Of a stretch of 64,000 bases of DNA, positions 3,389 through 46,784 are shown piece after piece. The stretch's first letter is position 1; every line of letters begins with the position of its first letter. The stretch lies in assembly GCF_030384885.1 (NCBI RefSeq), contig NZ_CP128613.1; one strand, written 5' to 3'. The position numbers and the translations under genes are program-made. Below the pieces are notes generated by a model that ran no database searches, was not told where the DNA came from, and was given only the letters and a program-made list of their open reading frames with translations. Source of the stretch: Escherichia coli. GTDB taxonomy: Bacteria; Pseudomonadota; Gammaproteobacteria; Enterobacterales; Enterobacteriaceae.

Positions 3389-5839
<2,451 letters not shown>

Positions 5840-5850
5840 CTAACTAACTC

Positions 5851-7203
5851 TCATAACCGAGAGAAATCATTGAAAAGTGCAAGCCCCATTAACAGCACCA
5901 GCAAAATCGAGCCAATGCGATAACAAAAGTCTTGAACCCGCTCGGATACCGGTCCGCCCTTGATCTTTTCGATCGCAAGGAACAGCAGATGCCCCCCGTC
6001 AAGTACGGGCAACGGAAACAGGTTAATTATCCCTAAGTTCACGCTAATGAGCGCAAGAAACGGCAGGTAATAAACAACCCCGAGTTCCGCTGTCATCCCA
6101 GCCCCCTTGGCGATAGAGATCGGCCCACTGAGGTTGTTCAGTTTCACATCACCGGTGATCAATTTTCCCAGCATACTGACCGTCAGCTTCATCAGCTGCC
6201 ACGTTTTGTCCGTGGCTTCGACGATAGCGTTGAACGGCCCATACTGGCGTACAACTTTATACTCATCTGGCAAAGGAATGACTTTCGGCTCAATACCGAC
6301 AAAACCAATCGCTTTACCATTACCCGGTTTACTCTCCGGGATTAATGTCAAAGACAAGGGACTCCCCTGTCTTTCGATTTCTAACGCTAAGGATTTACCC
6401 GGGTTATCCCGGACAAGCATCACAAAGGTCACCCACTGCGTTAAGGGCTGACCATCGACTTTAACGATCCTGTCGCCTGCTTGCAAACCTGCCTTACTTG
6501 CGGCCGAGTTTGGCTGCACATTTTCCAGTACAGGTTCAATTTGCGGGCCACGAGGACGAATCCCCAGCGAAGATACCGGATCTTCTTTATCAGGCTCAAA
6601 CGCCCAGTGACGTAAATCGAGCTTTACATCCCGTCGTTGGTCGCTGCCAAATGGCGCTACCGTAATGGTGGTGCTTTCATCGCCAATTTTATCGACCAAC
6701 TGCAAACGCACGGCATCCCAATCAGGCGTTTCGATACCATCTACGGCTTTTAGTTCCGTACCTGGTGCAATTTGTGCTTCCGCAGCTATCGAATTGGCTG
6801 CTATTTCGCCAACCACCGGACGTACGCCAGGTACACCAATAATAAAAACCAGCCAGTAGGCAAAGATAGCAAAAATGAAGTTTGCAACCGGACCTGCGGC
6901 AATAATCGCCGCACGTTGGCCGACAGATTTATTATTGAAGGCATGGTGGCGGAGTTCCGGAACAACCGGTTCTGCGCGCTCATCCAGCATTTTGACATAA
7001 CCGCCCAACGGGATCAGGGCGATGACATATTCGGTGCCTAGCTTATCAGTTCGGCGCCAGAGCGCCTTGCCAAAACCTATTGAGAAACGCTCAACGCGAA
7101 CACCACAACGCCGGGCAACCCAGAAATGACCAAATTCATGCACGGTGATAAGTACACCCAGTGCAACGATGAACGAAGCCAAATCCCAGAGAAAACTCAG
7201 CAT
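5851..7203 (-). CDS. rseP: Regulator of sigma-E protease RseP (site-2 protease)
   Basis: Track ORF 5851..7248; HEFGHF zinc-metalloprotease motif, PDZ regions; start moved to internal Met ([26 protein letters not shown]) to give the 450-aa protein I recall. Confidence 0.9.
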
Positions 7204-33985: not shown

Positions 33986-36229
33986 TTAGAAACGGAAGGT
34001 TGCGGTTGCAACGACCTGACGTTCTGCGCCCCAGAAGCAGCCATAGGTGTTAAAGCAGCTGGCGACGTATTCACGATCGAACAGGTTGTTAACATGCAGC
34101 GCCACGTTGGAGCCCGCCATGCCGACTCGCGCCAGATCATAACGCACTAACGCATCCACGACCGTATAACTTCCCACTTTAAAGGAGTTAGCCGGATCAC
34201 CATAGCTGGAGCCAGTATAACGACCACCGGTGCCCAGCGTCAGACCTGAAAGCGGACCGTCAAAGAAGGTATAGTCAGCCCACAGCGAAGCCATGTGTTT
34301 TGGCAGCTGTGCAGGCGTATTGCCTTTATAGGTAGTGTCGGTGGTGTATTCCGCATCGGTGTAAGTATAAGAACCTACTACGTTAACACTCGCCGACAGC
34401 GCCGCTTTCGCTTCGATTTCTACGCCACGAGCGCGGATCTCGCCACCTTCAACCGAGAAGAAGGAACCCTCAGGGTCCGCCATCAGGTTGTTGGTTTTAG
34501 TGAGATTATACACAGCACCAGTAACCACAATTGGGCGATCTTCCGGTACATATTTCACGCCGACCTCATACTGCTTACCTTTAGACGGCGCAAAAATATT
34601 ACCATCCTTCCCAACTTGTGAAGAAGGTTCAAACGATTCGCTATAGCTGAAGTAAGGTGTTACACCATTATCAAACAGGTAGTTAACACCACCACGCCAG
34701 GTAAACTGTTTGTCATCACGTTTATCGGTCGTCCCTTCAACGCGGTTATGAGACTCTTGATCCGCCCAGTCATAACGACCGCCCAGGGTGACCAGCACTT
34801 TATCCCACTGCGCCTGATCCTGAACATAAACACCCGTTTGTTTCTGCTTATTCAAAATGCGGTAAGGACCGGAGTTTGCCGGATCTTTCGCATTGAAGTC
34901 GAAATCGGTATTCACCGGATTGTACAGATCGAGCAGCGGTACGGAGTCGTCGTAACCAAACCAGGCGTTGATGTCATTACGCATACGCATAAAGTCGACA
35001 CCGGTCAGCAGAGTGTGGTCGATATCGCCAGTGGCAAACTTGCTCTGCAACTGGGTATCAACGGAGAAGTTTTGCAGCTTCTCATCATCAACGACGTATT
35101 TACGTGCCAGGTAGTGACCTTTATCGGCTGGCGCTAAAGCGGCACACTGTTTGCTGTAAGCATTCGCCGGATCGGAGCAGACGCCGTAACCATAAACGCT
35201 GTTTTGCGAGGTTTTGTTTTCAGCAAAGCGCAGGTTCTGACGCACAGTAAAGGTGTCGTTAAATTCGTGATCGAAGCTGTAGCCCACCATCTTCTCATTA
35301 CGAGAATAGGTGTTGTTCTTCGCCCCTTCGTTAAAATCTGTCGGCAGACGCTTACCGTTCGGCAGCGGCTCAACGGTTCCCTCTTTCGGCAGCCAGCCGT
35401 AATAACCGGTTTCCGGCTCGTTCTGGAAGTAAGAAAGGAAGGTGAAATTGGTTTTATCATCCGGACGCCAGGTAAACGCTGGCGCAATGGCATAACGCTG
35501 CTCTTCCGCGCCCTTTTGCTGGGCATTGGCAGAGCGCGCCAGTCCGGTCAGACGATAAGAGTAAACGCCATCATCATCCAGCGCATCGCTAAAGTCGAAA
35601 CCGGTCTGGAACAGGCTGTCTGTGCCCGCTTTAAATTGGATTTCTTTCAGCGGTTCGGTGGTTGGGCGCTTGCTGACCATATTTAACAGGCCGCCAGGGC
35701 TACTTTTACCGTAAAGAACAGAAACAGGGCCACGCATAATTTCAGCGCGTTCCAGCATATACGGGTCAATAACTGCATCGTTATAGAAGTTGCCTTGCAA
35801 CTTCAGACCGTTGAGATAGTTATTCTGGCTTTGGCCTTCTGCTGCAAAACCACGAATAATCAAATGATCATAAGTGTTTGATGCACCACGCGTACCGACC
35901 GAAACGCCTGGCGTATAGCTAAGCGCTTCTTTTACTGACTTAGGCTGATGCAGCGCCATTTCTTCGGCGGTCACAACAGAAATTGACTGCGGCACTTTTT
36001 GAATCGGTGTATCGGTTTTGGTGCCGGTAGCGGACTGTCGCGCCGCAATAGTTGCAGCTGGCCCCCATGCGCTTTCTTGCGGCGCTGGTGCAGCGGTAAC
36101 GGTGATAGTGTCTTCTTTCGGTTCAACCGCTGCCTGTGCGTAAACAGACATGCCGCTAACCGCTGTGGCTACTACAACTGCAATTTTACGCAGTGAGTGT
36201 TTTGGCTGAGCAGTTTTGGAACGCGCCAT
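33986..36229 (-). CDS. fhuA: TonB-dependent ferrichrome outer membrane receptor FhuA
   Basis: Track ORF 33986..36355; start placed at MARSKTAQPKHSLRKIAVVVATAVSGMSVYAQA (747 aa); C-terminal ...ATATFRF beta-barrel terminus. Confidence 0.95.
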   Translation of the reverse strand: MARSKTAQPKHSLRKIAVVVATAVSGMSVYAQAAVEPKEDTITVTAAPAPQESAWGPAATIAARQSATGTKTDTPIQKVPQSISVVTAEEMALHQPKSVKEALSYTPGVSVGTRGASNTYDHLIIRGFAAEGQSQNNYLNGLKLQGNFYNDAVIDPYMLERAEIMRGPVSVLYGKSSPGGLLNMVSKRPTTEPLKEIQFKAGTDSLFQTGFDFSDALDDDGVYSYRLTGLARSANAQQKGAEEQRYAIAPAFTWRPDDKTNFTFLSYFQNEPETGYYGWLPKEGTVEPLPNGKRLPTDFNEGAKNNTYSRNEKMVGYSFDHEFNDTFTVRQNLRFAENKTSQNSVYGYGVCSDPANAYSKQCAALAPADKGHYLARKYVVDDEKLQNFSVDTQLQSKFATGDIDHTLLTGVDFMRMRNDINAWFGYDDSVPLLDLYNPVNTDFDFNAKDPANSGPYRILNKQKQTGVYVQDQAQWDKVLVTLGGRYDWADQESHNRVEGTTDKRDDKQFTWRGGVNYLFDNGVTPYFSYSESFEPSSQVGKDGNIFAPSKGKQYEVGVKYVPEDRPIVVTGAVYNLTKTNNLMADPEGSFFSVEGGEIRARGVEIEAKAALSASVNVVGSYTYTDAEYTTDTTYKGNTPAQLPKHMASLWADYTFFDGPLSGLTLGTGGRYTGSSYGDPANSFKVGSYTVVDALVRYDLARVGMAGSNVALHVNNLFDREYVASCFNTYGCFWGAERQVVATATFRF

Positions 36230-36249
36230 TGGTATATCTCTGATGTAAA

Positions 36250-36300
36250 GTGAATGATAACGTAAACGAGAATGATTATTATAAAGATGAGATAATATTC
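36250..36300 (-). promoter_or_regulatory. Fur box / fhuA promoter region
   Basis: GAATGATAACGTAAACGAGAATGATTATTAT and GATAATATTC resemble the GATAATGATAATCATTATC Fur consensus, immediately upstream of the fhuA start. Confidence 0.5.
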
Positions 36301-36371
36301 GAAACGCTACGGCGATAGCAAGTAGCATCCCCTTCAGTTCAATATAAAAGTTCAAGAATCAACCAGAGGAA

Positions 36372-36443: not shown

Positions 36444-37454
36444 TTATCGATAATACACTTCAAAGGTGGCGACAGAATTAACCAGACCACTTTTTACATT
36501 ACCCGTTTTGATATAACGCGCCTTTAATGGGATGTTAACATTTTGATTTAAAGTGGTTTTTTCGATAACAGTATACTCTGTATCAAATGCTATAACATTG
36601 TTATTACTGTCCAGGATCTGCAGGCCAACACCTTCCGCCATCCCCGATCCAGACTCAATATTGAGAATATTATTACTCGTTATCCCCGTGGATCCTGCGG
36701 AGGTGAAACGGTAATCAACCTTTACATCCTGGGAACAATTTTCAATATGAATTGAAAACCTATCATCAGAAACTACAGGTGACACATTGTTAACATCAAA
36801 ATCATCTGTTCCGATATCATCGAGTGGAACGGTAATATTCTTGTTAATAAGATCACATGTCCCTGGTATAATATTTACCGGCACAGAAATAAAACGAAGC
36901 TGTCCTATAACAAGATTGTCATACTTCCAGTCAGCAACTAATTTACTGGTGTCAATGACTCCATTACCGACAGGCCCTGTCACAACAAACTGAATAGCTG
37001 CATGTATTTTTATCGGATAAACATATCCTCTATTCACTATTGACGAGCCTTTATGCCATGGTGTTATTAAATAACCTGAGGTGAGTTGCGCATTAACGTT
37101 ATTCGCCCATGCAGCACGAAAACCAATCCCTGGAACATTCGTCTGAAACACATCATGAAGGGGGTTATCGGTACGCAAATCGCTATTTGTCAAGACGGTA
37201 AACCCTTGCCAAATGTCACCATTCGCCGAGCAGGAAACTGAAATTGAATTACTAGTAGCTTCGAGTGTGGTAATAATCGTTCCCGGCTCTGCATCGTTAT
37301 TAACATCTAACGCTGGAACTGAGAATTCTATTTTTGCCGGATTTCCCCCATTTCCCGAAATGCTGCAACCGGCGAAAGCCTCAGGAATGGCAACTAAGGC
37401 AAGAAATATTATAGTCAGTAATATTTTTACATAAGAGAAAAATCCTGGCTTCAT
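36444..37454 (-). CDS. Fimbrial tip adhesin (two-domain: N-terminal receptor-binding domain plus C-terminal pilin domain) of accessory chaperone-usher operon
   Basis: Track ORF 336 aa; signal peptide MKPGFFSYVKILLTIIFLALVAIPEAFA; C-terminal pilin-like region with Cys pair and terminal ...SVATFEVYYR beta-strand; last gene after the usher. Confidence 0.75.
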   Translation of the reverse strand: MKPGFFSYVKILLTIIFLALVAIPEAFAGCSISGNGGNPAKIEFSVPALDVNNDAEPGTIITTLEATSNSISVSCSANGDIWQGFTVLTNSDLRTDNPLHDVFQTNVPGIGFRAAWANNVNAQLTSGYLITPWHKGSSIVNRGYVYPIKIHAAIQFVVTGPVGNGVIDTSKLVADWKYDNLVIGQLRFISVPVNIIPGTCDLINKNITVPLDDIGTDDFDVNNVSPVVSDDRFSIHIENCSQDVKVDYRFTSAGSTGITSNNILNIESGSGMAEGVGLQILDSNNNVIAFDTEYTVIEKTTLNQNVNIPLKARYIKTGNVKSGLVNSVATFEVYYR

Positions 37455-37475
37455 TATTCATTCATGTCCTGTTTG

Positions 37476-39950
37476 TTATCGGCACTCTATTGTGGCCTTA
37501 TAGATACCTTTGGTATATGTTTCTGGCACAGCTATAATCCCTGTACATTGCTGATTGTTCTCTTTTCCCCACTGTACCGTAAATGACATGGCATTTTGCA
37601 CACCAGTAATATAAACCTCACCATCCTCACCGACAATTGATGTACTATCCCCTAATGTCAGCAATGATCCAAAGGGTACGTATTCTTTATCGTGGAGCAA
37701 TGTCAATAATGCTCTCATACCATTACGTGCTTTAAAATTGACACCAACGACGGCACCTTTCGAAGGAATAACATCTTGTGTTGCATCAACGATATCAAGA
37801 TTATCGTGCCCCTGAGTATTTACCGTAATGGTGTTATGTCGATAATTTGTCATATTAGGAATAATCGCGTTCCCCCAATAATCAGTATAAACTCCCTGCG
37901 CATTTTGTACTTTTACATTAGCACCATCATCAATATGCACAATCGCGAATGAATCCTGTACTGATTGCCCTAATGTTACTCCATGAGTATGCGCAACCAC
38001 CGCACCTTGTGCGCTATAATTCCATTGTCGACTATTTTTATCATAGTTATATCCCAGACCAAACTCGCCTACTGAACTACGATAACGTCCATTTATACTG
38101 GCACCATAACCCACGTTATTATCGGCATAAGTTTGTTGTAAATTATAGCTAAGGTTATTATCTTGCAGAGCAGTTCCAGCAATACCCATTTGATGAGAGG
38201 TATTACCTTTGTCTGAACGATTTGCATTATACGTCGCCCATGCCCCCGGCAACCAGCGAGACAGAGGAATATTGATTGACAATGAAAATTGCTGCTCACC
38301 AGCCATTCCAGGCATATCTGTCAGTGCGTAATTAACAGACCAGCTAATATCACTCCAGCTAGTACTATAACCCATTCCTATGCTGCGTTCGGATCCTTGC
38401 ATTCCCCAATAATCTTGTTGATAACCATTAAGATAGATCGATCCCCAACGACCTATATTTTGCGAAAGATTAATTTGCAAATGGTTACGTCTATTATTGG
38501 TCTGGCGATAACTATAAATACTCTTATCATCAGGAATATCACGTTGATCAAGTGCCTCCTGAAAAGTATAAAATTGCGATGTTGAATAACGATAGCTTGC
38601 CAGATTTAATGTCGTATCAGTATCTGGAAAATCTTTCGAATACATTGCACGCCATGACAGTCCAGTTGCATCATTGTGTTCTTCAAGTTTCGTATTTGCT
38701 GCTGTGATATCAATAGAAACCGATCCCAGGCGGCCTAAGTCAGCACCAATTCCGGTCACACCAGAACGGTACATGGAGGCTCCAAGTATGCCACCATAAA
38801 TCGTTATTCCATAAGGCAAACCATATATCGCTGTTGCAACCCCAAAAACAGGTTGCTCTGATTTATTATCACTGTCACGATATTTTCCAGCAGCAACACT
38901 ATATTTTAATGCGTTTTCTCGCTGTAGGATTGGAACCGCTGAACTAGCCTGAATAAAGCTGTGTTCTTGTCCATTTGTTTCCTTGATGGTAACGTCCAGA
39001 TCGGCCCCTGCCGTTACCTGGTTTAAGTCTTTAATTTCAAATGGCCCTGCTGATACCCATGTTTGGTAAATGACATAGCCATTCTGTTTAATCACAACTT
39101 GTGCGTCGCTATTTGCAATACCACGTACTACAGGCGCAAAGCCTTGTTCACTCTCAGGCAACATACTGGTATCAGTTTCAAGTTTTATACCTGTCATTTG
39201 CACACTATCAAAAAGTTCACCATTCGTGAAAGTTTGCCCGACTTCCATCTGGCTACGTAATATTTTGATATCACGTTGCAAACTGGTGCTAATCGAATCC
39301 CAATTGGAGCCACTATAAACAGTATTATTACGTAACCGCCATACACCTAAATTCACACCTGAGTTTAAATTCAACCAATTTGAGTTCAGGTTATCACCAT
39401 CACTATTTTGTTGAGAACCACTGACATAATAACTTAACCAGGCAGCACTATCGCCATCATTCCAGTATTTTGGTGAAATACTCCCTATGGCTCTTGAATT
39501 CTGATAAATTTGAGGAATTTGCAGCCGCAGTGTTTGACTATCTAGCTGGAAGTCATAACGTGCGCCATCAATAATCTGTGAAATATCGCCAACCTCAGCG
39601 TCATCATCCATTACTTGTAACGCAGGAATGGCACCCACGTTAAGTCCTAGCTCACCGAGATCTGCCTTTGTAAAACGAGGGATAAGTTTTTTTTTGTCTG
39701 AAGAAAGAATGAACGTAATGTTTCTCTTATCAAGATATTCTTGCCCCCACATTACAGAGGTAAGATAGACACCTGGCGTTAGATTGTTATTATTAATAAA
39801 CTCTTCCAGCACTTTTGTATTTTCAAGCGGACTATCCAACTCCAGGATACGTAAGTTAAATTCATCTCGTGCATAGCTCAATGAATACACTGTAGATAGC
39901 GCAAGCGCTACTCCAGTTAAAACAAATGTACAATGCAGTGGTAGCGGCAT
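37476..39950 (-). CDS. Fimbrial usher (outer membrane assembly platform) of accessory operon
   Basis: Track ORF 824 aa; size and composition typical of FimD/PapC-family ushers; positioned between chaperone and adhesin. Confidence 0.85.
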   Translation of the reverse strand: MPLPLHCTFVLTGVALALSTVYSLSYARDEFNLRILELDSPLENTKVLEEFINNNNLTPGVYLTSVMWGQEYLDKRNITFILSSDKKKLIPRFTKADLGELGLNVGAIPALQVMDDDAEVGDISQIIDGARYDFQLDSQTLRLQIPQIYQNSRAIGSISPKYWNDGDSAAWLSYYVSGSQQNSDGDNLNSNWLNLNSGVNLGVWRLRNNTVYSGSNWDSISTSLQRDIKILRSQMEVGQTFTNGELFDSVQMTGIKLETDTSMLPESEQGFAPVVRGIANSDAQVVIKQNGYVIYQTWVSAGPFEIKDLNQVTAGADLDVTIKETNGQEHSFIQASSAVPILQRENALKYSVAAGKYRDSDNKSEQPVFGVATAIYGLPYGITIYGGILGASMYRSGVTGIGADLGRLGSVSIDITAANTKLEEHNDATGLSWRAMYSKDFPDTDTTLNLASYRYSTSQFYTFQEALDQRDIPDDKSIYSYRQTNNRRNHLQINLSQNIGRWGSIYLNGYQQDYWGMQGSERSIGMGYSTSWSDISWSVNYALTDMPGMAGEQQFSLSINIPLSRWLPGAWATYNANRSDKGNTSHQMGIAGTALQDNNLSYNLQQTYADNNVGYGASINGRYRSSVGEFGLGYNYDKNSRQWNYSAQGAVVAHTHGVTLGQSVQDSFAIVHIDDGANVKVQNAQGVYTDYWGNAIIPNMTNYRHNTITVNTQGHDNLDIVDATQDVIPSKGAVVGVNFKARNGMRALLTLLHDKEYVPFGSLLTLGDSTSIVGEDGEVYITGVQNAMSFTVQWGKENNQQCTGIIAVPETYTKGIYKATIECR

Positions 39951-39991
39951 AAATTCCTTTTCGCCCTGGTATGAAAATACAATTAAGCGGT

Positions 39992-40708
39992 TTATAGTTT
40001 TTGTTGACGTTTCCCTGAACTTGAACCATAGTCAGTTATCACCGACCACTCAACAACACTACCTGCTCCAGCAGGAAGACTAAACCGATTCTCAGAAAAT
40101 GGACCAACCATCATCGACAATGCACCAGGTTCAGATTTCTCCTCGACAGCAGTAATGCTCTTACCTGATACTGTTAGCTCATTAAATGAAATATAAAAAG
40201 GCGTTGGATTTTTTACTATGAGCCTCCCTGATTCTTTATGAAATTTAAGTTTTTCCCATGCAGTTAAAGCGTCGCTATTACTCAAAGAATCTGGTCGCCA
40301 AAATAACTTAAGCCGTACTTTCATTGCAAATTGCAAGGTGTTTTTATCTTTTAGCTCCTCCGGCATAGCAGAAATAGATTTTATATTTGCTAAAAACAAA
40401 CTTTCTCTATCTTGAGGAAGGCTTTCTTTATTTCCTGTAAATACAACATGGAGTAGTGTTTGACGGTTTTCCTCAAGTTTATAAACGGGAGGCGTGATGA
40501 GAAAAGGGGCTTTAGAACCATCAATATTACTCACCCAACTTTGCACGAGATAACGAGCATGTGCGTCTTTATTCTTTAATGTAATTTGAACTTCATTTTG
40601 ATTTGAAGGATAGACAATGCGTGTACCACCAAGTACAACACCTGCTTGTGCTTGTATTGCAGTGAGAAGAAATGTAAATCCTAAAAAGAATCGATAAGAT
40701 ACTGACAT
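39992..40708 (-). CDS. Periplasmic fimbrial chaperone (PapD/FimC family) of accessory operon
   Basis: Track ORF 238 aa; signal peptide; GGTRIVYP... N-terminal motif typical of PapD-like chaperones. Confidence 0.85.
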   Translation of the reverse strand: MSVSYRFFLGFTFLLTAIQAQAGVVLGGTRIVYPSNQNEVQITLKNKDAHARYLVQSWVSNIDGSKAPFLITPPVYKLEENRQTLLHVVFTGNKESLPQDRESLFLANIKSISAMPEELKDKNTLQFAMKVRLKLFWRPDSLSNSDALTAWEKLKFHKESGRLIVKNPTPFYISFNELTVSGKSITAVEEKSEPGALSMMVGPFSENRFSLPAGAGSVVEWSVITDYGSSSGKRQQKL

Positions 40709-40753
40709 AAATAACCCTCCATGGTCAGATAGTCCTTCAATACACTATAAATA

Positions 40754-41320
40754 TTACCGATAGAAGACTTCAAACGTCGCAGATGAAGCATATTTCCCCG
40801 CAGTTGGCGGGTTATTACCAATCTGGATGACATTAGCAGTATAATTAAATATCGTGGGATTTACATCGCCAGCATTATCAACATCAGTGGATTCATCAGG
40901 GACAGAACCATCAAATTTTACACTACTTGTTCCGCCATTTTTATTTGTTACCGTAATACCCACATTTGTTGCACTACCCGCAGCAGTTTCGCTATTTTCA
41001 AGGCGAAGAGAACCAGTATCCGTTGTGGTTCCAGAAAATGTCAGGTTTAGTTTTGTAACCAATGGATCACACTTTAGCAACTCAATCTTAAAATCTTTTG
41101 AAGTCCCAATCGTACCATCCCCGGTATAGTCCGCAGGGTAAGTATCTGCAAAAGTCACCGTGCCTGTCGTACTACTAGAATCATTGACATTGATTTCGCA
41201 GGTATCAGCAACAATTTTACCATTGAAGTTAACAATCCCAGTATCTACAGCAAATACACTCGTACTTACTGCTGCCAGGAAAGTTCCTGACGCAAATAGA
41301 GAAAGCAATTTTTTATTCAT
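40754..41320 (-). CDS. Major fimbrial subunit (pilin) of accessory operon
   Basis: Track ORF 188 aa; signal peptide MNKKLLSLFASGTFLAAVSTSVFA; conserved Cys pair (DTCEIN ... LLKCDP); C-terminal SATFEVFYR; first gene of operon. Confidence 0.8.
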   Translation of the reverse strand: MNKKLLSLFASGTFLAAVSTSVFAVDTGIVNFNGKIVADTCEINVNDSSSTTGTVTFADTYPADYTGDGTIGTSKDFKIELLKCDPLVTKLNLTFSGTTTDTGSLRLENSETAAGSATNVGITVTNKNGGTSSVKFDGSVPDESTDVDNAGDVNPTIFNYTANVIQIGNNPPTAGKYASSATFEVFYR

Positions 41321-41653
41321 AAAAATCCCTTAATTATGAGTCAATAAAGCATGATTCCATTCCAGAGAGGCTGGGCAGGACTTGATAAATATTGATAATA
41401 TAAATATATGCAAATAATAAAATTATTTTAGATTAGAGCAAAAAACACATTACATGTCTATACGACATATAATAAAAAGGTTACAACCATCTGAAATTTA
41501 AAGATTTGTTCTTATTCTCAAAAATATAAAATCATAAATTAAAAATATAAATTCACCCCATTAGATTCATTAAATAAATACTTATTATATTTATCTATAT
41601 AACGTCATAGTAATCTATTACGCTCTCCGCATCAGCGGAGAGCTATTACGATA
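41321..41653 (-). promoter_or_regulatory. AT-rich control region upstream of accessory fimbrial operon (promoter expected here), including a perfect stem-loop next to the mrcB stop
   Basis: 333-bp strongly AT-rich non-coding stretch with many A/T tracts; 10-bp inverted repeat CGCTCTCCGC-atca-GCGGAGAGCG near 41623..41646; no promoter elements could be assigned with confidence. Confidence 0.4.
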
Positions 41654-44188
41654 TTAATTACTACCAAACATATCCTTGATCCAACCTGCTACGCCGTCAC
41701 TGTCTTTCTGCTCTTGCTGATCAGGTTGCTGTTGCGGCTGTTGCTGCGGCTGAGAAGACTGATCAAACGGATTGCCTGACGGTTGCTGCTGCATCTCACT
41801 CTGCTGGCACAGCGATTGCGGATCGCTGGTCCAGACCGGTAAGACACGCATGCCACCGCTGCAGACAAAGTTGCCGTCGTAGTCCACGCCCATATCAGCA
41901 ATGTCTTCTGGCGGAACAAGATTCAGCGGTGTTGGCGTCTGGTTAGCCAGATAACGCTGATAAATCGACATTGCCCCACTGGCACCATACAGTTTGGTCG
42001 GCTGGTTGTTATCACGGCCTACCCAGGTGATGGTCACCGTGCTGCCGTCAATGCCCGCAAACCAGGTATCCACGTTGTTGTTGGTAGTCCCGGTTTTGCC
42101 CGCCAGATGCAGGTTCGGGTATTTCGCCCCAAGCTGACGACCCGTACCGCGTTGTACCACCTGCTGCATGGTCCATAGTGTCAGATACGCCGCCTGCGCC
42201 GGAACCGCGCGTTCCGCCTGCGGGAAGCTCTGATACAGCACCTTGCCATCTTCCGCAATTACCGAACGCAGCGCAGAAAGTGGTGCACGGTTACCGCCGC
42301 TGGCGATGGTCTGGAAAGCCTGCGCCACTTCGATTGGCGTTAAGTTCAACGCCCCCAGCAGCATTGCCGGAACCGGATGCAGCTGATCTTTCGGTACGCC
42401 CAGTTTAATCCAGGTATCCGTAACCGCAGGCAGCCCCAGCGCCATCCCCAGATTTACCGTCGGCACGTTCATCGAACGAGTCAACGCATCCACCAGCATC
42501 ACTCTGCCACTTTCGCTATAACGACGATCATCGTTCTGCGGTGACCAGACCTGACCGTTCGGCTGACGCAGCGCGATTGGCGCATCGGCAATCCACGTGT
42601 TCAGGCGATAGATTCTCGGCTGGCTTAAGGCCGTCAGATAAGTCGCTGGTTTTGCAAGGGAACCAATCGAACGACGCGCCTGCATCGCACGGTTGTAACC
42701 TGCAAACTGCGGCTCAGAACCACCAACCATCGCGCGAACTTCACCGCTAAAGCGGTCGACAACCACGATTGCCGTTTCCAGATCGCTCAGCTTTCGCTGT
42801 TTCTTCAGCGCCGGAATACCCTCCACGGCGGCTTTTTCTGCCGCGTCCTGGGCCACCGAGTCAAAGGTAGTGAAGATCTTCACGCCGGAGAGATCTTTCA
42901 CTTTATCGCCCAGTTTCGCCTGTAGCTCCTGACGCACCAGTTGCATAAAGGCTGGCTGTGGAGAGATTACCCCACCACGCGGCTGAACCCCCAGCGGACG
43001 CGCGCTGAGCATTTCATACAGTTCGCCGTCGATAATCTGTTGCTGTTGCAGCAGACGCAGTACCAGATTACGTCGCTCCAGCGCCAGTTTCGGGTTACGC
43101 CACGGATTGTAGATGGACGCCCCTTTCACCATACCCACCAACAGCGCCTGCTGGTCGAGGCTCAATTCTTCTACCGGGCGACCAAAGTAATACAAGCTCG
43201 CCAGCGGGAAGCCGCGGATTTCGTTGTCGCCGCTCTGACCGAGATACACCTCGTTCATATACAGCTCAAGAATACGGTCTTTGCTGTAACGCGCGTCCAT
43301 GATCAGCGCCATGTAGGCTTCGTTCGCTTTACGCCAGTAAGAACGCTCGCTGGAGAGGAACAGGTTTTTCACCAGCTGTTGCGTCAGCGTACTCGCCCCC
43401 TGCACCGTGCGTCCGGCGGTCAGGTTTGCCAACACCGCACGTCCGATGGAGTAGAGACTGATCCCATCATGCTCGTAAAAATGACGGTCTTCTGTTGCCA
43501 GCAAAGTATCCACCAGCAGATCCGGGAAACCACTGCGCGGCACAAACAGACGTTGCTCACCGTTTGGCGAAGAGATCATGGTGATCAGACGCGGATCAAG
43601 ACGGAAGAAACCAAACTGACGGTTGTTCTCCATATTGACGATCGTCGCCAGATGATCGCCATCAAAGGTCAGACGCGCACGCACCTGTCCTTCTTTGCTG
43701 TCCGGGAAATCAAACGGACGACGGATCATCTCAATGCTGTTGGCCTGCACGGTAAATTCGCCAGGGCGCGTCATTTTCGACACCTGACGATACTGGGTCG
43801 CCTCCAGCAGCTTCACCATCTCGTTTTTGCTGATGGTCATGTCTGGCTCAAGGTTGACCATTCGGCCATAAACAGCCGCAGGCAATTGCCAAACTTTGCC
43901 ATCAATACGGCTACGAATTTTTTGATCGAGATAAACACCGTAAATGGCGATCAGCACGGCAAAAACGATAGCCAGTTTTAGCAGCAGCCATAGCCAGCCG
44001 CGTTTGCCACGAGGCTTACGCCCTTTGCCTTTGCCCTTACCTTTGCGCGGCATCGGTTCTTCATCCTCATAGTCATCATAATCGTCGTAATCATCGTCAT
44101 CTTCGTAACGACGACGGCTTACCTTTTGTTTGACCGGACGCGTCGGTTTCCCTTTGCGTCCAATTGGCTCGCGGTCATTCCCGGCCAT
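41654..44188 (-). CDS. mrcB: Penicillin-binding protein 1B (bifunctional glycosyltransferase/transpeptidase)
   Basis: Track ORF 41654..44203; start placed at [22 protein letters not shown] (844 aa); acidic [15 protein letters not shown] tract. Confidence 0.95.
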
Positions 44189-44281
44189 GCTTTTTCTCCG
44201 CAATATTCAGGCGCAAAAGCCCGATTTTCTGTTCTTCTGTAACAAGACAGAAGAAGATATCTCTCAAATTTACTTTGGTCT

Positions 44282-46711
44282 TCATGAATACTTTTTCGTC
44301 CGTCGCGTCGGTGCGGTATTTGCCGGATCATCCGGCCAGACGTGTTTGGGATAACGCCCTTTCATCTCTTTTTGCACCTCGCGATACGCTCCTTTCCAGA
44401 AGGCGCTCAAATCTCGTGTGATTTGCAGCGGCCTTTGGGCAGGAGAAAGCAACTCCAGCACCAGCGGCACGCGCCCCTGGGCGATCGTCGGATTGGTGGC
44501 CTCGCCAAACATCTCCTGCATTCTCACCGCCAGCGCGGGCGGGTTATCTTCATGGTAACGAATGGCGATCCGGCTTCCCGTCGGCACAGTGTAATGCGCA
44601 GGCAATTCACTATCCAGACGTTGCTGCATCCCCCAATCAAGTAATCCGCGTAGCGCCTGATAAATATCGAGTGATTTCAGGCCGCGTAGCGAATGTACGC
44701 CTGTCATATGCGGCAGGAGCCACGTTTCCAGCGTCGCCAACAAACTTTCATCATCAACCGCTGGCCAGTCATATTCCGGCAACCACTTTGCGGCGCATAA
44801 CAAACGCAAGCGTAGCTGTTCCGCTTCCGCCGTCCAGTTGAGCACGCTTAAACCTTTATCACGAATGCCGTTAAGCATCGCCTGATGCAACTCGTCTTCC
44901 GAGGGTTTCGCCAGCGGCTGCACTTTCACCGTCAAATGACCGATTTGCAGCCGACGCCACGCTTTCAGCGTACCTTGCGCGTCATCCCACTCCACAGTGT
45001 CAGACTGCTGTACCAACTGCGGACAGCGTTGTACTAATTCATCGATATCGACCGGTAGCGCCAGTAAAATCCGCGCATCCGGCGAGGCGCTGCCCTGCAA
45101 TAATAACGGTGCGATCAACCATTCGTGGCGGCTGAGCGCATCATCGGCATCGAGCATTGCCCCCATGCCGTTTGCCAGTTGATAGCGCCCCTCTTGCCCA
45201 CGGCGGCGAGCGATGCGATCGGCAAACGCTCCGGCAAGTAACGGTGCGATAAGCGAACTGTCTGCCTCACCGCCGCGTACGTTTAAGCGCTTTAACAGTT
45301 GCTGGCTACGTTGCTGCCAGGCAGGTTGATTGCGCGAAAACGCCACGCCCAGATCGATATTGCCCATCCGTGGTGGCTCTTCGAGAATAGCGGCAATTTT
45401 TGCAGCGGTAGCAGCTTCGTCGTCGCTCTTTGCGCTCACCAGCATTGCCGCTAAACGCGGATCGTTACCCAGCGTCGCCATTTTCTGCCCTTTCGTGCTT
45501 AGCCGTTCACCGTCCATCGCCCCCAGCATCCGCAACAGGCGTTTCGCGGCCTGTAAATTCACGGCTGGCGGTTGATCCAGCCAGCTCATCTGCGTCGGAT
45601 CGCTGCATCCCCATTGCAGTAATTCCATCAGCAAACCGGAGAGATCGCTTTGTAATATTTCTGGTTCACTTTGCGCGGAGGCGCGTTCTGCTTGTTCTTT
45701 GGCGATTAAATGTAAACAGATCCCCGGCTCCAGACGTCCGGCACGCCCGGCGCGTTGCGTCATTGATGCCTGGCTAATGCGTTGGGTAATCAGCCGCGTT
45801 AGCCCCGTGCGCGGATCAAAGCGCGCCACACGTTCCTGAGCACAATCCACCACCAGACGAATACCTTCGATGGTTAAACTGGTTTCAGCAATATTGGTTG
45901 CCAGCACCACTTTGCGCATCCCTTCTGGTGCCGGAAGGATCGCTTTTCGCTGATCGTTCAGCGACAACGCGCCATACAGCGGGCAGAGCAACACATCACT
46001 ACCGATGCGCGAAGCCAGTTGTTCCTGAACGCGCTGAATTTCTCCGACACCAGGTAAAAATAACAGTAATGAGCCGCTTTCCTGATGCAGCAATTCGGCG
46101 GTGGCAACCGCCACGGCTTCATCAAAACGCTGATGAGCGAGCAGCGGTAAATATCGGCGTTCAACCGGAAATGAGCGCCCTTCTGAGATGACGACGGGCG
46201 CTTCTGGCAGCATCTGCTGCAAGCGGTCATTGTCCAGCGTAGCCGACATAATCAGTAGTTTAAGGTCATCACGCAGACCTTGTTGCACATCGAGTAACAG
46301 CGCCAACGCCAGATCCGCCTGCAAGCTGCGCTCATGAAACTCATCGAGGATCACCAATCCAACGCCGCTCAGTTCAGGGTCACGCTGGATCATGCGCGTC
46401 AACACGCCTTCGGTAACTACTTCCAGGCGAGTATTTGCCCCGACACAGTTTTGCGCGCGCATCCGGTAGCCTACCGTATCACCTGTTTTTTCGTTAAGCA
46501 GTTCCGCCAGTCGTTGCGCAACGTTACGCGCCGCCAGGCGACGCGGCTCCAGCAGGATAATTTTTCCGTTAATGCCGGGATGCGCCAGCAGTTGCAGCGG
46601 CAGCCAGGTTGATTTCCCGGCCCCGGTCGGCGCACTTAATAACACCTGCGGTGCACCATCGAGGGCAGCAAGTAACTCAGGTAAGACGGCGGCAACGGGC
46701 AACGACGACAC
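44282..46711 (-). CDS. hrpB: ATP-dependent RNA helicase HrpB (DEAH-box); probable GTG start
   Basis: Track ORF 44282..46756; GAGKST Walker A and DEFH box; start placed at in-frame GTG giving MSSLPVAAVLPELL (809 aa as I recall). Confidence 0.88.
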   Translation of the reverse strand: MSSLPVAAVLPELLAALDGAPQVLLSAPTGAGKSTWLPLQLLAHPGINGKIILLEPRRLAARNVAQRLAELLNEKTGDTVGYRMRAQNCVGANTRLEVVTEGVLTRMIQRDPELSGVGLVILDEFHERSLQADLALALLLDVQQGLRDDLKLLIMSATLDNDRLQQMLPEAPVVISEGRSFPVERRYLPLLAHQRFDEAVAVATAELLHQESGSLLLFLPGVGEIQRVQEQLASRIGSDVLLCPLYGALSLNDQRKAILPAPEGMRKVVLATNIAETSLTIEGIRLVVDCAQERVARFDPRTGLTRLITQRISQASMTQRAGRAGRLEPGICLHLIAKEQAERASAQSEPEILQSDLSGLLMELLQWGCSDPTQMSWLDQPPAVNLQAAKRLLRMLGAMDGERLSTKGQKMATLGNDPRLAAMLVSAKSDDEAATAAKIAAILEEPPRMGNIDLGVAFSRNQPAWQQRSQQLLKRLNVRGGEADSSLIAPLLAGAFADRIARRRGQEGRYQLANGMGAMLDADDALSRHEWLIAPLLLQGSASPDARILLALPVDIDELVQRCPQLVQQSDTVEWDDAQGTLKAWRRLQIGHLTVKVQPLAKPSEDELHQAMLNGIRDKGLSVLNWTAEAEQLRLRLLCAAKWLPEYDWPAVDDESLLATLETWLLPHMTGVHSLRGLKSLDIYQALRGLLDWGMQQRLDSELPAHYTVPTGSRIAIRYHEDNPPALAVRMQEMFGEATNPTIAQGRVPLVLELLSPAQRPLQITRDLSAFWKGAYREVQKEMKGRYPKHVWPDDPANTAPTRRTKKYS

Positions 46712-46784
46712 AAAACGCTCCAGAGGGTTAACATTCTTCGCGCCACATTGTAGCATCGCGGTAATGCATAACCGAGTACCTCAC

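Follow-up and report, generated by a model that had tools for sequence, protein, structure and literature searches.

The mrcB–ushA spacer of a rare Escherichia coli Ush allele: a U-less stem-loop at the mrcB 3′ end and a putative fimbrial promoter region

The locus, its operon and its distribution

The region considered here occupies positions 41321 to 41653 of a 64-kb stretch of Escherichia coli DNA, hereafter the window, and is exactly the 333-bp gap, as the original prediction had it, between the mrcB stop codon (TAA, 41654-41656) and the ATG of a fimbrial pilin gene (41318-41320), both genes lying on the minus strand. The mrcB gene (41654-44203, minus strand) is recognised by the PBP1b Pfam domains of its open reading frame and by its annotation in the identical record NZ_CP027579, and hrpB (44282-46756) lies upstream of it on the same strand; the E. 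coli strain 2013C-4282 is 100% identical to the window. On the other side of the gap stands a four-gene operon (36444-41320, minus strand), which encodes a pilin (40754-41320, Pfam Fimbrial), a PapD-type chaperone (39992-40708, PapD_N/C), an usher (37476-39950, Usher/PapC) and a tip adhesin (36444-37454, Fimbrial and MrkD-like), in this order between mrcB and fhuA, the next minus-strand gene beyond the adhesin gene. The mechanically called fhuA reading frame (33986-36355) begins at an upstream TTG and gives 789 aa, the annotated gene being shorter. No meaningful small open reading frame was found in the spacer. Its strong AT-richness, already remarked in the original prediction, is genuine: the GC content is 25.8%, and 22.9% downstream of the hairpin described below, against a window mean of 49.9%, and no other 333-bp stretch of the window has a GC content of 30% or less, which makes the spacer its most AT-rich part.

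The operon is the known ushABCD operon, or "ECSF_0165" gamma* chaperone-usher operon, as its Pfam domains and its location, the same as that of ECSF_0165 in SE15, indicate. The sporadic "ECSF_0165" chaperone-usher type was described by Wurpel 2013 (PMC3559732), and the name ushABCD, together with the assignment to the gamma* subfamily in ST131 and in EPEC E2348/69, comes from Stubenrauch 2017 (PMC5717340). In both SE15 and E2348/69, the ush operon sits at the same mrcB-fhuA position. The operons of SE15, ST131 and E2348/69 share with the window the gene order, the Pfam domains, this position, the hairpin and a promoter-like block, but the window allele is a rare one, its spacer being 74-75% and its pilin 86-89% identical to those of ST131 and E2348/69, whose spacers in turn share about 79% identity. 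A set of 5426 complete E. coli genomes includes 574 with the ush operon; 566 of these have the nearly identical ST131-type allele, a handful the E2348/69-type allele, and only two of the 5426 the allele of the window. In the other 4850 genomes the spacer between mrcB and fhuA is 219 bp long and contains a different single-copy hairpin, ACCGGATGGC-GAGT-TGCCATCCGGT.

The locus has real island-like traits, namely a low GC content (about 40%) and a break in homology to K-12 at 41646, which is 8 nt past the mrcB stop and 3 nt before the hairpin; homology restarts ahead of the fhuA promoter, near 36322. Downstream of the ush segment, the window and K-12 have the fhuA promoter and Fur-box region (36200-36322) in common. 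On the other hand, mrcB lies directly upstream of the ush operon in all 16 relatives for which the upstream flank was recovered, and these belong to seven genera (Escherichia, Salmonella, Citrobacter, Enterobacter, Pluralibacter, Huaxiibacter and Lelliottia). The pilin relative of E. albertii is 85% identical to that of the window, and those of Salmonella, three Citrobacter species, eight Enterobacter genomes, Pluralibacter, Huaxiibacter and Lelliottia are 58-64% identical. The distance from mrcB to the pilin gene is 320-410 bp in the recovered loci, with the exception of the 697 bp of C. freundii (CP056232.1), where a fragment of an ISL3-family transposase lies in the spacer after a canonical mrcB terminator (3546-3725 of the recovered locus L007). 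Neither an integrase nor a tRNA gene was found between mrcB and fhuA in the window. One suggestion of the original prediction, that the hairpin might mark the junction of an island, does not survive this comparison, and a classical horizontally inserted island with its junction at the hairpin was rejected on the synteny after mrcB in seven genera. Because the operon follows mrcB in all of these genera, we regard the region as an orthologous spacer that is old and that shows presence/absence polymorphism within E. coli, a possibility which Wurpel et al. had raised earlier (PMC3559732).

The stem-loop at the mrcB 3′ end

The hairpin reads on the plus strand GCTCTCCGC (41622-41630), loop ATCA and GCGGAGAGC (41635-41643), and the mrcB transcript (minus strand, 41622-41643) would accordingly carry the stem-loop GCUCUCCGC-UGAU-GCGGAGAGC followed by the tail GUAAUAGA. 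It begins 10 nt after the mrcB stop, and 7 of its 9 perfect pairs are G-C. A perfect 10-bp stem had been claimed; the perfect inverted repeat and the 4-nt loop are confirmed, but the stem has nine pairs, the last base having been mis-copied in the original prediction. In the window allele the tenth position is mismatched, reading A.G on the transcript and C.T on the plus strand, whereas the common ST131-type allele pairs C with G there and E. albertii pairs U with G. In folding comparisons none of 200 shuffles was as good as the window hairpin (z = -3.95; range -3.95 to -5.27), and all 18 stem columns are invariant across the four Escherichia alleles, for which P is about 1e-4 given 60% invariant columns. 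An outer helix, formed by the mrcB stop region and the sequence after the hairpin, appears in the folds of the window and of one further allele (L012) and is absent from the ST131 allele; it was not taken as conserved. Read from the plus strand, the tail past the hairpin is slightly more U-rich (UAUUACGAUAUU).

The hairpin occurs once per genome, always at the mrcB 3′ end, and in exactly the 574 ush-positive genomes. A dispersed REP- or BIME-like repeat was rejected, as the hairpin is single-copy and has no Rfam match, a scan of 41000-42000 with E values up to 10 having returned chance matches only and none for the hairpin; a REP-like nature was likewise rejected for the K-12 hairpin, which is mostly single-copy with a median of one place per genome. 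It had also been considered that the structure might be the native one of mrcB, identical in K-12. K-12-type genomes carry a different hairpin, and since K-12 homology ends before the hairpin of the window, the latter is part of the ush haplotype and not a K-12 structure.

The remark that no obvious U-tract follows the stem holds: a tract of at least 5 U in the 8 nt directly after the stem is absent, only 2 of the first 8 nt of the tail being U, and a terminator scan returned 0 sites. At the equivalent position, every other genus has a canonical intrinsic terminator of A-run, stem and T-run (for example, AAAAAGCCGCTTTAATATAAAGCGGCTTTTTTT), and the orthologues of six other genera have the U-tract of at least 5 of 8 after their stems. 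From the T-run terminators that the other genera have at the hairpin position, it appears that Escherichia has replaced such a terminator by a U-less stem-loop. Rho-dependent transcripts of E. coli are known to have their 3′ ends marked and protected by stable stem-loops that lack U-rich tails (Dar and Sorek 2018, PMC6061677), and, like these, the stem-loop of the window is stable and GC-rich, lies shortly after the stop codon and lacks a U-rich stretch. Members of that class, however, have a C-rich Rho loading site immediately downstream, whereas the window has 4% C, with a C/G ratio of 0.25-0.31, in the 80-120 nt after the hairpin. Since this C-poor RNA is unlike a Rho loading site, the Rho-dependent part of the model is weak for the window allele; the composition of the K-12 allele (C/G 1.8-1.9) does resemble one. 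A U-less protective stem-loop at the mrcB 3′ end is nevertheless the reading that we prefer from the sequence, even though the C-rich downstream region characteristic of the class is missing, and a leaky intrinsic terminator or an H-NS roadblock is a possible way in which polymerase may be stopped at the hairpin.

Two other origins of the hairpin deserve weighing at this point. It might be a weak or leaky intrinsic mrcB terminator which descends from the canonical one after loss of the T-run, and its location at the very position of the canonical terminators of other genera is consistent with this, as is the resemblance of the inner stem CCGC/GCGG and the AT loop to the terminators of Salmonella and C. 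portucalensis (ACACTCGC-TATAT-GCGGGTGT and ACACCCGC-TATTA-GCGGGTGT); short GC stems can converge, so that the resemblance is weak evidence of descent, and the two U residues after the stem and the negative terminator scan speak against termination of this kind, which leaves us with a conceivable but disfavoured account. The other origin takes as its starting point a perfect 8-bp direct repeat, CGTAATAG, which abuts both sides of the 20-bp palindrome (41615-41650, minus strand): copy 1 lies at 41643-41650, its last G belonging to the ninth stem pair, and copy 2 at 41615-41622. The hairpin could then be a passive scar, left by the near-precise excision of a mobile element with an 8-bp target duplication or by template switching that produced a palindrome, and would do no more than mark the boundary of the ush haplotype. 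The repeat on both sides of the palindrome, with a chance probability below 1e-3 by a rough estimate, the K-12 homology break 3 nt from the hairpin, and the presence in this spacer of IS1 in one E. coli genome and of part of an ISL3 transposase gene in C. freundii all fit such an origin. The repeat, however, is perfect only in the rare window allele, the other Escherichia alleles matching 5-6 of its 8 positions, with CGTAAT in the ST131-type and E. albertii alleles; the element itself is hypothetical; and the stem is invariant amid about 25% divergence of its neighbourhood, which argues for selection. We consider the scar unlikely as the whole explanation, and such an origin would in any case be compatible with a present function of the hairpin. 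In K-12, an 8-bp repeat, CATCTAAG, flanks the 53-bp segment with that strain's own hairpin and is degraded in other ush-negative lineages.

Promoter candidate and ushA leader

The spacer had been taken for the control region of the fimbrial operon, and this is supported. A conserved composite sequence at 41432-41460 (minus strand) is the best promoter candidate. It consists of a putative -35 element, TAGACA (41455-41460; 5 of 6 consensus positions), a TG extension (41439-41440) and a putative -10 element, TCTAAT (41432-41437; also 5 of 6, with C in place of the key A at position 2), at a -35 to -10 spacing of 17 nt in the window and 17-18 nt in orthologues, and the transcription start predicted from it lies near 41425, which would leave a leader of some 105 nt. 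By alignment, all 18 orthologous spacers, which represent seven genera, have the composite T[AG]GAC-N13-17-TGnTnnAAT, and no other promoter-like match was found at the orthologous place throughout the set; several other promoter-like matches in the spacer score as high or higher and are not conserved. The second position of the -10 element is never A in the 18 orthologues; it is for this reason that a consensus promoter scan missed the candidate, and the promoter is therefore probably weak or dependent on an activator, unless the block has another role. A sigma-E reading of the block was rejected by inspection on its spacer length. An RcsB-box-like sequence, TN[GA]GA-N4-TCTGA, lies in the promoter spacer of Enterobacter, Huaxiibacter, Lelliottia and Pluralibacter, is perfect in E. 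hormaechei against what we take to be the consensus (TN[GA]GA-N4-TC[TC]NA), and is absent from the promoter spacers of Escherichia, Salmonella and Citrobacter. An antisense promoter-like sequence, TGGGCA-16-GATAAT (41372-41399, plus strand), points towards mrcB.

Several blocks are specifically invariant among the Escherichia alleles, including TAGATAAA, TATTTATTTAATGAAT and TATCAATATTTA. The first is the core of a putative H-NS site, TAGATAAATA (41588-41597, minus strand), which matches in 8 of 10 positions what we take to be the high-affinity H-NS motif, tCGATAAATT; the second is a 16-nt block (41565-41580, minus strand), invariant in all four alleles. An IHF-like site, GAACAAATCTTTA (41499-41511, minus strand), lies about 45 nt upstream of the -35 element and has CA and TT columns that are conserved across genera; compared with the presumed consensus WATCAANNNNTTR, the window has two mismatches and E. 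hormaechei is perfect.

The predicted leader contains ATCAATATTTATCAAG (41381-41396, minus strand), a 12-nt core of which is invariant in the Escherichia alleles, then GGAATGGAATC (41353-41363, minus strand) with the motif AAUGGA 41 nt before the ATG, and finally the ribosome-binding site AAGGGA (41326-41331, minus strand), conserved in the alignments. All 18 orthologues have a hexamer like AAUGGA at a distance of 35-43 nt from the ATG on its upstream side, and in 15 this hexamer is exactly AATGGA. Of the two GGA motifs of the leader, one is in the ribosome-binding site and the other about 30 nt upstream, a layout which may represent a two-site CsrA target. In Salmonella, the fim 5′ UTR was reportedly described by Sterzenbach in 2013 as a CsrA-binding fimbrial leader. 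The window leader is similar to CsrA-binding fimbrial leaders in its two GGA motifs, conserved across genera, and in the lack of a predicted stable fold: RNAalifold predicted no pairs in the leader, a hairpin just upstream of AAUGGA is no better than shuffles (mean z -0.73), and the whole leader folds no better than shuffles either (z +0.87). It differs from CsrA-bound leaders in that the post-transcriptional evidence for ush consists of an Hfq effect and RyhB chimeras in EPEC. No significant structure of the attenuator kind was found between ushA and ushB (z +0.19). A Fur-box-like match near 41383-41401, 11 of 19 positions by eye, is unremarkable in such AT-rich DNA.

Silencing, expression and interpretation of the spacer

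The spacer had been likened to the DNA bound by H-NS at silenced fimbrial promoters, and its AT content, far above average, is a feature of such regions. The phased A/T tracts that were also proposed did not stand up, as the spacer has no excess of periodicity at 10-11.5 bp, 34% of shuffles reaching the same power; the curvature feature of H-NS-silenced fimbrial promoters is thus absent, and H-NS dependence of ush is putative. The extreme AT-richness upstream is shared with H-NS-silenced promoters that are counter-silenced by Ler, such as lpf of O157:H7 in the account given of it in PMC3891560, and, so far as PMC5717340 cites Korea 2010, with the cryptic chaperone-usher operons of K-12.

Published expression data concern the E2348/69 allele, whose spacer is 74% identical to that of the window. 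In that strain E2348C_0153 (173313-173879) is the pilin gene directly after mrcB, and it is activated 4-5 fold by Ler, the H-NS antagonist (PMC3891560), and repressed by Hfq (PMC8550237, main text). In one comparison of the supplementary RNA-seq of the latter study, ushA has a log2 value of 3.76 (about 13-fold) and mrcB changes about 1.4-fold, and the reads of the usher and adhesin genes stay very low (PMC8550237). Since the main text states that Hfq represses the gene, we read this comparison as hfq mutant versus wild type, and the difference between the 13-fold and the 1.4-fold change indicates that ushA is controlled separately from mrcB. By RIL-seq, the first about 95 coding nt of ushA (6366-6460 of the recovered locus L038; NC_011601 173326-173407) form Hfq-bound chimeras with RyhB, 12 of which are listed (PMC8550237). 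RyhB is an iron-responsive sRNA, and the ush operon adjoins fhuA. Reads in E2348/69 drop about 20-fold from ushA to ushC and ushD (PMC8550237, supplement), and the ushB chaperone gene of this strain is annotated as frameshifted (6978-7695 of L038). For an allele other than that of the window, then, the EPEC data support a promoter independent of mrcB, silencing of the H-NS type and post-transcriptional control.

These data also bear on whether the operon of the window allele has an effective promoter of its own, or depends for any expression on read-through from mrcB. The absence of a U-tract after the hairpin and of a Rho-loading composition downstream would permit read-through, and the -10 candidate is non-consensus; but in EPEC ushA responds to hfq and Ler and mrcB does not, and the promoter-like block is conserved across seven genera, so that we attach little probability to this account. 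Less probable still is a phase-variation switch, whether invertible, dependent on Dam and Lrp methylation, or working by strand slippage at the T6 run in the promoter spacer. Phase variation is frequent among fimbrial operons, and the original prediction had kept this door ajar while finding no fim-switch-like repeats by eye. The latter observation is confirmed, as distant inverted repeats are no better than expected by chance, 46% of dinucleotide shuffles doing equally well; the spacer has no GATC site, and the four-gene operon has no recombinase or PapI/PapB-like regulator gene. With the invertible fimS switch the window therefore shares only the setting upstream of the major pilin gene, having no significant inverted repeats, recombinase or orientation variants, and the same holds for the Dam/Lrp switch of pap, the GATC sites and local regulators of which are missing. 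Moreover, spacer and flanks give a single co-linear alignment in 569 genomes, of which 566 are nearly identical; the 566 ST131-type genomes all share one 61-nt promoter core, and neither the T-run nor the orientation varies among them. The only hint is that the T run is T7 in E2348/69 and T6 in a 99%-identical allele (L012). No more than three records are rearranged inside the spacer, and in the one that was examined IS1 has inserted. All in all, a DNA-based switch at the spacer is unlikely. The IS1A copy in question (NZ_CM190130.1; 3286-3983 of the recovered locus L006) lies between the hairpin and the promoter block of one ST131-type genome, and some 150 nt past the mrcB stop an AAAAAC repeat has a 6-bp indel that tells apart two otherwise 98%-identical ST131-type spacers (L003 and L005).

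The spacer, whose anatomy, conservation, linkage and synteny can be observed directly, is probably the orthologous mrcB-ushA spacer of the Ush (ECSF_0165-type, gamma*) operon, made up of a U-less stem-loop of mrcB and then the promoter region of ushA; transcript ends, H-NS binding, promoter use and binding factors are inferred in the following scheme. The Escherichia-specific stem-loop, 10 nt past the mrcB stop, most likely gives the mrcB mRNA a stable 3′ end, where it would protect the message from 3′-5′ exonucleases and reduce read-through into the fimbrial operon. The remaining 300 bp or so, at 23% GC, would hold the operon's own promoter (TAGACA, 17 nt, TGcTCTAAT) and a leader of about 105 nt which, lacking a predicted stable fold, carries the AAUGGA motif and the ribosome-binding site. 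H-NS probably silences this DNA, with relief by Ler or similar antagonists, and the ush mRNA may be further held down via Hfq-dependent control. A more ambitious version, in which the ancestral mrcB terminator of Escherichia was replaced by an element-scar palindrome that has since been selected as a U-less insulator, and in which an IHF-like site, a -10 element that never has A at position 2 and a leader AAUGGA motif for control of the CsrA/Hfq type form a hitherto undescribed Ush design common to the genera sampled, seems to us improbable. Taken for what it is, the spacer is an ordinary AT-rich fimbrial upstream region joined to an ordinary allele-specific mrcB 3′ stem-loop.

Its importance lies in the operon that it precedes, since both the pandemic ST131 clone and EPEC E2348/69 possess Ush, and we found no published description of the ush control region. 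The promoter candidate, the IHF-like site, the AAUGGA leader motif and the hairpin are now mapped as targets for mutagenesis. The ush locus, which looks like an island within E. coli, is better read as an old syntenic locus that has been lost or replaced in 89% of strains.
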